Sequence record: MN850615.1 | Strand: one strand, 5' to 3' | DNA length: 64,000 nucleotides | DNA from: Escherichia phage kvi | Made by a program: the position numbers and the translations under genes | In this document: positions 14,185 through 17,788 of the stretch, piece after piece | Layout: every line of letters starts with the position of its first letter | Numbering within the stretch: the first letter of the stretch is position 1 | Notes under the pieces: model-generated | What the model was told of the DNA's origin: nothing | The model's database searches: none | Seen by the model: only the letters and a program-made list of their open reading frames with translations

Positions 14185-14213
14185 ACTATATCAGATACTT
14201 AATTGCTTGTCAA
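14185..14213 (-). promoter_or_regulatory. sigma70-like promoter for gene 32
   Basis: TTGACA N17 TATAGT within 3' end of HNH ORF. Confidence 0.4.
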
Positions 14214-14795
14214 TACTTTATCAATTATATCTAACAGTTTTGGCTTTCTATTTTCAAATTCTAACATCTCTTCGGGAGAAATGTCAACTACTTCTGTTTT
14301 GTTGAAAAAGTTTGGGTCTATAGCATCAGCAACAAAGTTTCTCGCAAGTGCTGCCGCTTTCTCATGAACATATATTCCCAAATATATCAACTTCTTTCTT
14401 TCGACCTGAATATTGGCAACATATTTACCATCTCGTTTATAAAGACTAACACCGATATATTCAGACGATCGGCCTTTCTGTTTACCCATATTTCTTGAGT
14501 TTTGTTGCTCGTTCGCATCTCTCAAGTTTTCAATCCGATTATCTGTTATAATTCGGTTAACATGGTCAACGTATTTTGGCATGTATCCATGATGCATAAA
14601 GAAAATTATTCTATGCTCTTTATGATGTTTACCATCGATACACACCAATCTGTATCCATGACTAGGATTAACTCCACCCGCTCTAGATCCGACTTTATGC
14701 TTTCTGTTTGTCGATATCTTGCGAATCAGCTTACCGTTATCATATTTAAAGAGTTCATGACAACGAGCATACAATTCAGGATCATATGTTTTCAC
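14199..14795 (-). CDS. HNH homing endonuclease with AP2 DNA-binding domain
   Basis: HNH core (HHGYMPKYVDHVNRIITDNRIENLR) followed by AP2-like segment (SEYIGVSLYKRDGKYVANIQ...GIYVHEKAAALA); free-standing between 32 and 59. Confidence 0.8.
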   Translation of the reverse strand: MKTYDPELYARCHELFKYDNGKLIRKISTNRKHKVGSRAGGVNPSHGYRLVCIDGKHHKEHRIIFFMHHGYMPKYVDHVNRIITDNRIENLRDANEQQNSRNMGKQKGRSSEYIGVSLYKRDGKYVANIQVERKKLIYLGIYVHEKAAALARNFVADAIDPNFFNKTEVVDISPEEMLEFENRKPKLLDIIDKVLTSN

Positions 14796-15468: not shown

Positions 15469-15738
15469 TTAAATATCGAGAGTGTTGGTCGGTTCGTCGA
15501 TCACTCCCTTCCTGAGTGTTCTATTTACTATACATTCTTGTGTGATCTTGTCAATAATGGACACCGGAATATACTTCTGATAGTGACCATATTCGATAGA
15601 GTTTTCCTCTACAAACTGCGTTGTCGCTTCAAGATAAGTCAATCCCTCTTCAACAACCAGTTTTTCGATTGCAAGACCGTTTGCTGTTTTATTCGCGGCT
15701 TTTACCGCATGTTCATTAAGCATTGAACACCCGATCAT
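15469..15738 (-). CDS. 33: late transcription accessory protein gp33
   Basis: 89 aa acidic protein at conserved position 59-33-dsbA. Confidence 0.5.
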   Translation of the reverse strand: MIGCSMLNEHAVKAANKTANGLAIEKLVVEEGLTYLEATTQFVEENSIEYGHYQKYIPVSIIDKITQECIVNRTLRKGVIDEPTNTLDI

Positions 15739-15991
15739 AGAGTTCTACCGCTTCGTCGCGTTCTGCTTCGAAGGTTTCGCGCTGTTGCTGGTGATACAGT
15801 TTAAACAGAATGCCCCACATTTTACCATCTACGCCTAATTCTTCTTTAGCACGCTGTTTGATCTCTTTGATCTTATCGCCATATGCTTCTTGAATGGTTT
15901 TCTGATCGCTGGCTTCTTTAATCAGTTGCGCCAGGGTATTTCCGTGTACATTTTCATCGAATACTACTTTTTCTTTTTTCTGTTCAGTCAT
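15716..15991 (-). CDS. dsbA: dsDNA-binding protein DsbA
   Basis: 91-aa basic protein at T4 dsbA position. Confidence 0.45.
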   Translation of the reverse strand: MTEQKKEKVVFDENVHGNTLAQLIKEASDQKTIQEAYGDKIKEIKQRAKEELGVDGKMWGILFKLYHQQQRETFEAERDEAVELYDRVFNA

Positions 15992-15996
15992 AATAT

Positions 15997-16596
15997 TTAA
16001 CCCTCTTTCGTCATTAATTGAAAACCACGTTCAGCTTTTGAAATTTCGCTAGGACTTAAATCGTCACCAACATATTCTAGCATCATTTCTCGGATAATGT
16101 CAAGTGCTTTTTCATCACCTGATTTTAACTCGAACTCAAGTTCATAATGAGCAGTGTTTCCCAATCCTTCGCCTACTTTGCCATAATAGAAAGTGTCTTT
16201 GCACATTTCCACTATACCACAACCCATATCTAGAGTCAATGACTTGCGATATGTCATTACTTGCATTATTGCAGTGATATAGTCGGAGTTTACCCCTAGA
16301 CTATCAATAAAATGGACGAACTCATCCCAATTTGAAAATGTCATTTCCTCGCGGTTGAATAGTCCAGATTCATTATCACCCATTTTGACCATGATCTCTG
16401 ATTTTCTACAGTCAAGTCGTGCATAAATTCCTTTTTGACGTAGCGCATGATCTTCGGTATCATAATAAAATTCGTGTTTTAATATGTTATCTCGGTCTAA
16501 GAGATTGTACCCGTCATACATTGCCACCCACAAATCACAGATGGTTTCGACGCCAATTTGTGAGTGTGCATAGTATTTTAATTCAAGTTCTTTCAT
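15997..16596 (-). CDS. CYTH-domain protein (triphosphate tunnel metalloenzyme, YgiF/CyaB-like)
   Basis: 199 aa; N-terminal ExExK (ELELK), YYDTEDHAL...ARLD, C-terminal ELEFELKSGD and SKAERGF, all CYTH hallmarks. Confidence 0.65.
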   Translation of the reverse strand: MKELELKYYAHSQIGVETICDLWVAMYDGYNLLDRDNILKHEFYYDTEDHALRQKGIYARLDCRKSEIMVKMGDNESGLFNREEMTFSNWDEFVHFIDSLGVNSDYITAIMQVMTYRKSLTLDMGCGIVEMCKDTFYYGKVGEGLGNTAHYELEFELKSGDEKALDIIREMMLEYVGDDLSPSEISKAERGFQLMTKEG

Positions 16597-16606
16597 GTGT
16601 CAACCC

Positions 16607-17554
16607 TTAGAACTCACCAATTTTCTGTAACATTTTAACTAACGCATTTGTTACAAAATAGTTATAAATTTTACCGCGTGGTGCTGGTTTAGATTTTTCC
16701 CATGCTAACAAAATTTCATATTCGATGTTATCAGGAATAAATTCAAAATCAATAAGTTCGCGGTTTTCGTCAAAGCGTCGTGCTTCTTCCTCTGTCATCA
16801 AAGACTTTGGATCTTCGGCATCGAAAATTTGCTCTAACCATTTGGTTGCAATTGGTTTAGCTCGTTCTCCTTCCAGTCGTGAGATAATGAAATCACTACG
16901 GCACTTGATAGAAGCTACACCGTCTTTTGCGTCACCCTTAACACATTTTACCATAAGGTCTTTGTAAGGGCTACCATATTTGCATTTCTTCCACGCTTTC
17001 TGTACTGGCGACCACTGTTTCACGTTTTTGTATTTGTGCAACTGTGTGTAGTCACCATCGCCGGAGTTGATTAGCACCTGGCGACCTTCTACAGAAAACT
17101 TTTTAGTTAATACAGCGATTATATCATCCGCTTCAACTTTGTCAACCTTAATAACGTGATAAGGCATGTTCTCTTTAAACTCTTCGGTGATCTTATTGAT
17201 CGCAGCAAAGATCATCTCCCAATCACGCGGATCTGCGTCTCGTTTTTCCTTACGGTTGCGTTTATAGTAAGGTGCGATATCACGTCGCCAGTAACCTTTG
17301 CTTGAATCAAAGGCAAGTACCGTAATTGGGTATTGCTCTTTGAATTTTGTCATATTATAACGCATGGTGTCAAGGATAAGATGACGGATCATACCTTCAT
17401 TAATAGGATCTTCCGGTTTAAAGGTATGTGAGATAGTAGCAATCATAAGCTGCGACATATCAATCAAATGCACACCTTCCGGCAGTTTATCTTCTGGATC
17501 ATCGAAGAAATCATTAAGTGTAGCGGTCGTTTTTGTAAATGGGTTATACGTCAT
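16607..17554 (-). CDS. rnh: RNase H / FEN-type 5'-3' exonuclease
   Basis: 315 aa; FEN-1/RNase H fold motifs (EADDIIA, SGDGDYTQL), T4 position before gene 34. Confidence 0.85.
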   Translation of the reverse strand: MTYNPFTKTTATLNDFFDDPEDKLPEGVHLIDMSQLMIATISHTFKPEDPINEGMIRHLILDTMRYNMTKFKEQYPITVLAFDSSKGYWRRDIAPYYKRNRKEKRDADPRDWEMIFAAINKITEEFKENMPYHVIKVDKVEADDIIAVLTKKFSVEGRQVLINSGDGDYTQLHKYKNVKQWSPVQKAWKKCKYGSPYKDLMVKCVKGDAKDGVASIKCRSDFIISRLEGERAKPIATKWLEQIFDAEDPKSLMTEEEARRFDENRELIDFEFIPDNIEYEILLAWEKSKPAPRGKIYNYFVTNALVKMLQKIGEF

Positions 17555-17556
17555 AA

Positions 17557-17742
17557 TTAAGTTCTCTCCACTCTCACAACAACATATTCGCCAAACGAGT
17601 TAGATACTTCACGGTCATACCCGTACTTCTCCATAACTCGCAGAATTGCATTGTTTAATTCGGCGCGGAAATAATTGTAATCCTTATCAGGGATTCTGTC
17701 AACTACCCATTTTGCACCTTCTGACAAATCAACTTTAACCAT
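17557..17742 (-). CDS. hypothetical protein
   Basis: 61-aa ORF coupled to rnh. Confidence 0.4.
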   Translation of the reverse strand: MVKVDLSEGAKWVVDRIPDKDYNYFRAELNNAILRVMEKYGYDREVSNSFGEYVVVRVERT

Positions 17743-17780: not shown

Positions 17781-17788
17781 TATAAATA
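17781..17788 (+). promoter_or_regulatory. T4-type late promoter box
   Basis: TATAAATA 29 nt upstream of gene 34 ATG. Confidence 0.55.

Follow-up and report, generated by a model that had tools for sequence, protein, structure and literature searches.

Escherichia phage kvi (sequence record MN850615.1) was analysed over a stretch of 64,000 nucleotides (nt), referred to below as the window. Between dsbA and rnh it carries a gene for a protein of 199 amino acids (aa) of the CYTH, or triphosphate tunnel metalloenzyme (TTM), family, and the question raised by this locus is which reaction such a protein would serve inside a phage replication-gene cluster. An earlier note on this DNA, made from the sequence letters, had warned that the substrate could not be read from the sequence. 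The warning stands, yet the tunnel lining differs systematically from that of YgiF-type inorganic triphosphatases (PPPases). The explanation favoured here, held with evenly balanced confidence, is an active two-metal triphosphohydrolase with altered specificity; that the protein is a catalytically active two-metal TTM phosphohydrolase is, as a broader claim, held with good confidence.

At this locus the window shares 99.2-99.6% identity with Escherichia phages FL37, AV108, SAP and TB34 and ~96% with RB49 and Phi1, so that it is assigned to Krischvirus, the 'pseudo-T-even' or RB49-like phages. The CYTH/YgiF-like identification is not new, but has been on record since 2003-2006: the RefSeq note on RB49p245 reads 'similar to P45267, P30871, HI1598, ygiF', and RB49ORF244c is listed as a Pfam CYTH hit (E=0.0026) by Nolan et al. 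2006 (PMC1524935), who also flagged Aeh1ORF004c as a weak CYTH hit. Literature searches on CYTH/TTM proteins with phage or (anti-)defence, on ygiF with phage, and on Krischvirus/RB49 found no functional study of the CYTH gene.

Fold and catalytic residues

The protein matches the Pfam CYTH model (PF01928) over residues 27-191 with 29.5 bits (gathering cut-off 23.2; E=8e-7) and PHROG 14893 over its full length (E=4e-133); a single-sequence phmmer search against the PDB gave nothing significant (YgiF, E=1.2). Profile A1, which contains mostly phage family members, matches YgiF (5a60) with E=3.7e-13, and the deeper profile A2, mainly of ~200-aa bacterial relatives, matches it from end to end with E=2.7e-52. 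The AlphaFold2 model on A2 (predicted local distance difference test score, pLDDT, 95.2; predicted TM-score, pTM, 0.89) has eight long strands and a C-terminal helix, the strands forming an eight-stranded antiparallel β-tunnel. With this model, Foldseek ranked YgiF bound to inorganic triphosphate (PPPi) first (E=1.4e-12, query TM-score, TMq, 0.78), followed only by other TTMs. YgiF is thus the closest solved relative in both profile and structure searches. The assignment to the CYTH/TTM proteins made in the earlier note is confirmed by the Pfam match above threshold and by the tunnel fold; its comparison with 'YgiF/CyaB' holds for YgiF and fails for CyaB, as judged by the profile and structure matches and by the cyaB model of NCBIfam (TIGR00318), which gave no hit even at E<=1. 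NCBIfam makes no assignment for the phage protein.

The N-terminal TTM domain of Escherichia coli YgiF (PDB 5a60/5a61) is a specific Mg2+-dependent PPPase. The phage protein lacks the C-terminal CHAD domain of YgiF, ending at residue 199 just past the plug helix, and its β3-β4/β4-β5 hairpin region is shorter; many of the ~200-aa bacterial relatives are also without CHAD, so that its absence does not decide against a YgiF-type enzyme. In YgiF, E160 is the ligand of metal 1, and E4, E6 and E162 are those of metal 2, the ion that orients the attacking water; catalysis depends on R56, its replacement in R56A being strongly inhibitory, and K69 aids substrate binding (Martinez et al. 2015, PMC4641920). 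E4, E6, E160, E162 and R56 of YgiF correspond to E3, E5, E154, E156 and R60 of the phage protein, all invariant in the phage clade. According to a hidden Markov model (HMM) alignment of 46 phage-clade and 216 bacterial sequences, from which all residue tallies were taken, E3, E5, K7, R60, R82, E84, R117, E130, D134, E152, E154, E156, K187 and R190 are invariant or nearly so in phages and bacteria. The ExExK motif is present in 45/45 phage and 210-211/216 bacterial homologues, the remainder being gaps. E152/E154/E156 are invariant and align with YgiF E158/E160/E162, and in the plug-helix motif K187 is invariant and S186 and R190 are near-invariant.

Two readings of the alignment were discarded. 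A by-eye version that set Y58 opposite the catalytic R56 of YgiF, suggesting a dead or cyclase-like enzyme, is ruled out by HMMER and MAFFT, both of which place R60 there. K71 versus Thr, taken as a substitution, proved to be an indel artefact: the phage hairpin has 2-3 residues fewer, and the spacing makes K71 the counterpart of YgiF K69.

By homology, a stand-alone TTM enzyme descended from a bacterial YgiF-like PPPase would bind a Mg2+/Mn2+-triphosphate complex in its tunnel via E154 (metal 1). Metal 2, held by E3, E5 and E156, would activate a water molecule, and R60 would assist cleavage of the terminal phosphoanhydride, with the phosphates bound by K7, K71, R82, R117 and K187. An active enzyme is favoured because the metal-binding and catalytic residues are invariant, the tunnel-facing positions are conserved over a synonymous divergence (dS) >1, and the ratio of non-synonymous to synonymous divergence (dN/dS) is <1.

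Tunnel lining and variation among alleles

At eight tunnel-facing positions the phage clade departs from residues that the 216 bacterial relatives strongly conserve, and its replacements are largely fixed (Table 1). The alignment is robust at these positions because their columns adjoin invariant anchors without intervening gaps. D62, F80 and H150 are shared by all five of the divergent phage allele classes, and Y58, T115, F136 and Y138 in all except the most distant one, P0121; position 86 varies among phage alleles (T/V/L), but is never the bacterial Glu or Asn.

Table 1. Tunnel-facing positions at which the phage clade departs from its bacterial relatives and from YgiF.
Position	Phage clade	Bacterial relatives	YgiF residue
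58	Y 43/45	A 159, G 24, S 14; all 216 = A/G/S/V/T/I, no aromatic	G54
62	D 45/45	R 213/216	R58
80	F 46/46	H 144, S 42, F 19	H79
86	T/M/I/V (T86 in the window)	E 174, N 33	N85
115	T 44/45	F 191	F124
136	F 44/45	G 211/216	G145
138	Y 44/45	V/I	V147
150	H 41/45	I/L	I156

The earlier note had credited the protein with the full CYTH signature, which is not quite correct: in the basic RxR strand the first, catalytic Arg (R60) is present, but the second position, almost always Arg in the bacterial relatives, is D62. Since the second Arg of AtTTM3 can be mutated without strong effect on catalysis, D62 should change binding and not kill activity. ThTPases (thiamine triphosphatases) carry W/Y-x-R-x-R in this strand, the aromatic residue stacking on the thiazole ring near the plug helix, with a small residue in its place in the other TTMs (Vogt et al. 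2021, PMC8233210). Y58 occupies the position of this ThTPase Trp (W53), and the phage strand, Y58-x-R60-x-D62, shares the central Arg but not the second one, which is kept by the mammalian 25-kDa ThTPase, a much more distant relative. ThTPases are not closer to the phage protein than other TTM groups. Retained catalytic residues combined with a replaced lining lead us to infer that the substrate pocket has changed and that the enzyme is not dead.

The gene also varies in an unusual pattern. Pairwise Nei-Gojobori comparisons of the window with seven Krischvirus genomes gave dN/dS values of 0.13-0.43 in the CYTH gene; those of other genes in the cluster were 0.02-0.12 (rnh), 0-0.13 (dsbA), about 0 (gp33) and 0.03-0.19 (gp59). 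Against phage Skers, dN is 0.35 and dS 1.03 in the CYTH gene, with a dS of 0.17 in rnh and 0.04 in dsbA. A sliding identity profile locates this divergence in a central cassette of codons 8-152, in which nucleotide identity is 46-65% to Skers and 68-98% to RB49-type genomes, compared with 96-100% in the flanks. The cassette edges are sharp, lying just past the ExExK codons and at the ELEFELK codons. At 75% identity the cores fall into six classes. The allele classes of phages whose neighbouring genes are 98-99% identical have cores that are 41-44% identical to that of the window, with C-terminal 46 residues 96-98% identical; in the P0034 class, of which the genomic context was not read, the core is 57% and the tail 87% identical. 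Because the cores diverge between near-identical flanks with sharp edges, the centre of the CYTH gene behaves as a recombinationally swapped cassette, apparently drawn from a diverse allele pool.

Among nine divergent alleles (dS >1), 23/45 tunnel-facing strand positions are invariant versus 4/46 outward-facing ones (Fisher p=9e-6). This pattern suggests that selection preserves the tunnel, including most of the phage-specific lining, while the surface turns over.

Mosaicism is not special to the CYTH gene, since mosaic patches also occur in rnh and in one gp32. In rnh, the patch at 16700-16760 on the minus strand (about codons 265-285) is 58-78% identical to Skers, RB49, Phi1 and GEC-3S and 96-100% identical to FL20 and JK32, the remaining rnh being 90-100% identical. 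Shigella phage JK32 carries a divergent gp32 allele (L009, 4481-5428; 78% aa identity, dS 0.58), the other Krischvirus gp32 proteins being 97-100% identical to that of the window. In the metagenomic CYTH allele P0033 (206 aa), the β3-β4 hairpin contains 7 extra residues that look like a local duplication.

Substrate and competing explanations

For the favoured enzyme with altered specificity, the preferred substrate would no longer be plain PPPi, but more likely a small organic triphosphate (nucleoside, deoxynucleoside or thiamine-type) that the phage needs removed or converted. An organic triphosphate is preferred because the re-lining of the tunnel is fixed and because a plain phage PPPase would add little to the cell, where the host pyrophosphatase provides most of the PPPase activity and the contribution of YgiF is marginal (Kohn et al. 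2012). In the same study, YgiF was a specific PPPase that did not act on ATP, GTP, ITP, PPi or polyphosphate and had no cyclase activity.

The main rival, a distinctly less likely one, is an ordinary YgiF-type PPPase that converts PPPi to PPi and Pi and clears a by-product of infection, for instance PPPi released by host deoxynucleoside triphosphate (dNTP) triphosphohydrolases, the substitutions then reflecting drift or stability. Enzymes of the dGTPase type do produce PPPi. In sequence and structure, PPPi-bound YgiF is the closest match, the catalytic residues have all been kept, the loss of the second Arg is tolerated in AtTTM3, and the nearest bacterial relatives adjoin PhoU-like and PHO4 phosphate-transport genes. 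Drift, however, would hardly replace eight tunnel positions and keep D62, F80 and H150 in all phage allele classes over dS >1, with most other tunnel replacements kept in all but the most distant class, and the dominance of the host pyrophosphatase leaves such an enzyme little to do.

Several points weigh against the favoured explanation. The logic of the nearest homologue still makes PPPi the default substrate, and the literature searches returned zero biochemical data for any member of the phage CYTH family. That the eight residues would form one shared pocket is suggested by strand parity and by the literature on position 58, not by measured distances. Placed in a tunnel that binds phosphates, the acidic D62 might reduce activity instead, and the aromatic replacements could simply plug or narrow it to closure. 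The elevated dN/dS (0.3-0.43 versus 0.0-0.2 in the neighbours) could likewise reflect relaxed constraint if the gene is of marginal use. Finally, the probable timing of expression is deduced solely from gene order and consensus promoter matches.

In a further, improbable explanation, the re-lined YgiF scaffold would destroy a nucleotide of the phage-host conflict, either a triphosphate immune nucleotide such as the deoxyinosine triphosphate (dITP) of Kongming or a toxic non-canonical nucleotide such as the ITP/dITP of deaminase defences. The swapped cassette over a conserved tunnel would then reflect an arms race in which some host factor senses or inhibits the enzyme. According to the Kongming paper, dITP is an immune messenger whose production phage dNMP kinases set off; the only phage counter-measure known targets the precursor, and a phage hydrolase of dITP is not reported there. 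T4-like phages carry dNMP kinases. A triphosphate-bearing messenger is thus documented, which leaves the manipulation of defence signalling suggested in the earlier note conceivable; the remodelled tunnel has aromatic residues, the core of the gene is hypervariable between near-identical neighbours, and the dN/dS of the gene is 3-4 times theirs. Against counter-defence, PADLOC gave no hit at E<=1 for the phage protein and four relatives, in a search of defence-system models only, no anti-defence protein library being searched. Furthermore, the mosaic patches in rnh and gp32 show that the pattern is not gene-specific, dN/dS is <1, and the surface variation could be neutral.

Slightly less credible still is the processing of RNA 5'-triphosphate ends in the manner of Cet1, on Okazaki primers or on host or phage mRNA. 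The TTMs include RNA triphosphatases, and giant-virus capping enzymes are among the weaker structural matches; the gene lies beside RNase H in the lagging-strand/replication cluster rnh-59-32, and RB49 is without the Nudix hydrolase NudE (Nolan et al. 2006). The Cet1-like RNA triphosphatase family (PF02940) gave no profile match and no close structural match. A non-catalytic sponge for a triphosphate ligand or a protein partner, with catalysis lost through the Arg-to-D62 exchange, is less likely again, even though D62 places an acidic residue where a phosphate-binding Arg would be and sponges are a common phage strategy against nucleotide signals (Kongming paper), because the four metal-ligand glutamates and the catalytic Arg are invariant in all alleles and a pure binder would not need them.

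The synthesis of cyclic AMP, which the earlier note had put forward as one possible role, is not borne out. A class IV (CyaB-type) adenylyl cyclase is extremely improbable: three database records read 'adenylate cyclase' and CyaB shares the CYTH fold, but of the determinants given by Vogt et al. 2021 (an HFxxxxExExK motif, the central Arg exchanged for a small residue, and ExA in β8) the HF motif is absent, since only M1-K2 precede E3, R60 is retained and invariant, and β8 reads E154-F-E156. Class IV cyclases (CyaB, YpAC-IV) have the CYTH fold and ExExK in common with the phage protein, but their structural matches are weak. The 'adenylate cyclase' labels in GenBank are therefore unsupported.

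A role in the nucleotide pool has also been considered by others: Iyer et al. 2021 suggested that phage triphosphatases of the CYTH and MazG types could break down unmodified nucleotide triphosphates, as dUTPase does. T4 gp56 dCTPase/dUTPase and the MazG-like NTP pyrophosphohydrolases have folds unrelated to the phage CYTH protein, and at most a functional analogy is possible. The CYTH protein as a stand-in dCTPase is ruled out, as Krischvirus encodes a gp56 homologue (RB49, ELT3) that is 49% identical to that of T4. A tie to cytosine modification was likewise rejected. A 2026 paper reports fully modified (glucosyl-methyl) cytosines in the DNA of SAP (OZ034687) and canonical cytosines in TB34 (OX001802), which is 99.96% identical, and finds the known genes of the hydroxymethylcytosine pathway absent from Krischvirus. 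Both phages encode the same CYTH protein, identical to that of the window, and the gene therefore does not explain their difference.

CYTH proteins of other viruses (Aeromonas phages 65.2 and D3, uncultured Caudovirales, and the capping triphosphatases of giant viruses) share the superfamily fold, which recurs in large viruses, but are only 9-16% identical to the phage protein (TM about 0.3-0.6), which suggests that they may have been acquired independently. None lies at the same locus.

Gene order, expression and distribution

The CYTH gene is the sole long open reading frame (ORF) at exactly its coordinates (Table 2), with an ATG start and a TAA stop, and its product begins with MKELELKYY and ends with SKAERGFQLMTKEG. 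Position, protein sequence and motif sites agree with the earlier description, which had not given the strand, here found to be minus. Its placement between dsbA and rnh was correct as well, and so was the lack of a gene there in T4, in which dsbA (149509-149778) directly adjoins rnh (149787-150704) with zero genes between them.

Table 2. Coordinates of the CYTH gene, its motifs, its neighbours and associated signals in the window.
Feature	Coordinates	Strand	Remarks
CYTH/TTM gene, 199 aa	15997..16596	minus	Orthologue of RB49p245 / RB49ORF244c / Phi1 ORF245
ExExK motif (E3, E5, K7; ELELK)	16576..16590	minus	Metal-2 ligands and phosphate-binding Lys by alignment to YgiF E4/E6/K8
Strand Y58-A-R60-L-D62 (YARLD)	16411..16425	minus	Catalytic Arg kept, aromatic at ThTPase W53 position, Asp for second Arg
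Strand F80-N-R82-E-E84	16345..16359	minus	R82/E84 invariant; F80 phage-specific
Strand E130-M-C-K-D134-T-F136-Y-Y138	16183..16209	minus	E130/D134 conserved; F136, Y138 phage-specific
Strand H150-Y-E152-L-E154-F-E156-L-K158 (HYELEFELK)	16123..16149	minus	E154 metal-1 and E156 metal-2 ligand by alignment
SKAERG, start of C-terminal helix 187-196	16024..16041	minus	Helix of the AlphaFold2 model; 'plug helix' of closed TTM tunnels (role from literature)
Hypervariable central cassette, codons 8-152	16141..16575	minus	Sliding identity profile
rnh, T4-type RNase H / 5'-3' exonuclease	16607..17554	minus	Upstream neighbour; Pfam RNaseH_C 2.6e-37, 5_3_exonuc_N 4.8e-18
dsbA	15716..15991	minus	Downstream neighbour, starts 5 nt past the CYTH stop; Pfam Phage_DsbA 5.4e-22
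rnh stop TAA overlapping the CYTH Shine-Dalgarno sequence AAGGG	16604..16609	minus	Sequence TTCTAAGGGTTGACACATG
Candidate early promoter inside rnh, TTGACA-16-TG-TATAAT, 12/12	17118..17145	minus	Perfect sigma-70 consensus with extended -10 TG (consensus scan)

The gene is embedded gap-free in the replication cluster rnh-CYTH-dsbA-33-59-32. By Pfam, the minus-strand genes are gp32, an HNH-AP2 endonuclease, gp59, gp33, DsbA, CYTH, RNase H and a 61-aa ORF; gene 34 diverges from them on the plus strand. The gap between rnh and the CYTH gene is 10 nt, a junction kept in Skers, RB49 and contigs L014 and L013, and the Shine-Dalgarno sequence of dsbA (AGAGGG) sits within the final CYTH codons. The GC content of the CYTH gene (37%) is close to that of its neighbours (35-45%).

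Two neighbours differ from T4. The HNH-AP2 homing endonuclease gene (14199-14795, minus strand), between gp59 and gp32, shares 14 nt with the end of gp59; the window, Skers and FL20 have this gene, but it is absent from RB49, Phi1, GEC-3S, JK32, UPWr_E1 and contig L014, and in T4 the same slot holds the unrelated GIY-YIG endonuclease SegG. The 61-aa ORF (17557-17742, minus strand), between gene 34 and rnh, belongs to PHROG 3594, for which PHROG assigns no function; every Krischvirus locus examined has it, and T4 lacks it at that position.

Gene order suggests that the CYTH gene is probably co-transcribed with the replication cluster. It lies on the strand of the T4 early and middle genes (Nolan et al. 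2006), and no T4-type late promoter (TATAAATA) is found on the CYTH strand between 15400 and 18000. Some 520 nt upstream of the CYTH start, the candidate early promoter within rnh may serve as an internal promoter for CYTH-dsbA-33; its two hexamers persist in L003, a contig of a sister lineage, in spite of four substitutions in the spacer and a rare ATA Ile codon, and T4 has no such site. Directly before the CYTH ATG, a TTGACA conserved in all lineages, including L003 and L013, combines with TAAAAT in codons 6-8 to an 11/12 promoter-like site (16575-16603, minus strand), which would start transcription inside the gene; its conservation could equally be explained by constraint on the ribosome-binding region. 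On the plus strand, where the window has only two late motifs TATAAATA, one of them occupies 17781-17788, with gene 34 starting 29 nt downstream (17817).

The CYTH protein is encoded in 58/58 phage records matching the locus, and zero records have the junction without the gene. Most of these records label it 'hypothetical', three 'adenylate cyclase' and two 'inorganic triphosphatase'. In phage G2494 (vB_EcoM_G2494, MK327935), the match to the gene is split into two pieces, each annotated as a hypothetical protein, reflecting a frameshift or a sequencing error. A 163,765-bp contig with a Skers-type allele, P0035 (NCBI AAHF58_000195, an 'Escherichia coli' hypothetical protein), is evidently a Krischvirus genome inside a bacterial assembly.

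The family is narrow, comprising 44 proteins in a word-indexed search, and an exhaustive HMM scan of 1.84 billion cluster representatives gave only three below E=1e-30, followed by generic bacterial CYTH proteins. In all phage-clade members with readable context (P0042, P0043, P0121), the gene occupies the same slot, either between RNase H and DsbA or, on a short contig, directly upstream of DsbA. Two of these contigs represent sister lineages with flanking proteins only 77-82% identical to those of the window. The shared slot in such lineages, together with the presence in all 58 records, indicates an old acquisition that has been retained. The earlier term 'accessory insertion' is therefore apt relative to T4, but not within Krischvirus, where the CYTH gene is an old, stably kept lineage gene, selected rather than transient.

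The nearest non-phage relatives, P0044 and P0045, are single-domain CYTH proteins from gammaproteobacterial metagenome-assembled genomes with 30-31% identity. Their chromosomal context is conserved, with the phosphate-transport genes on one side and an RsmD-like methyltransferase gene on the other. Such stand-alone ~200-aa CYTH proteins of Gamma- and Betaproteobacteria resemble the phage protein in length, in their single domain and in the ELELKSG and SKAERGY motifs, but they are chromosomal housekeeping proteins with a canonical small-x-R-x-R strand, G at position 136 and the rest of the bacterial lining. Bacterial relatives are annotated as 'CYTH domain-containing protein' or 'inorganic triphosphatase'. 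The phage gene accordingly looks like a captured housekeeping YgiF-like triphosphatase gene without the CHAD domain.

What appears new here is, on the one hand, a putatively YgiF-derived TTM with a systematically altered tunnel and none of the three cyclase determinants and, on the other, a hypervariable core that is apparently swapped as a cassette around a conserved interior. Literature searches found no characterised phage CYTH/TTM enzyme, yet a whole genus of coliphages in therapeutic use retains this gene within its replication-gene cluster. Were the protein a plain PPPase, the finding would be ordinary; were it a counter-defence enzyme, it would be the first immune-evasion enzyme of the TTM family. 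Y58, D62, F136, Y138 and H150 are the residues whose reversion bears directly on the specificity hypothesis. If the specificity is indeed altered, the protein would define a new TTM activity and would point to a small triphosphate metabolite that is relevant in T-even-type infection, be it for pool hygiene, as a stress signal or as an immune messenger.

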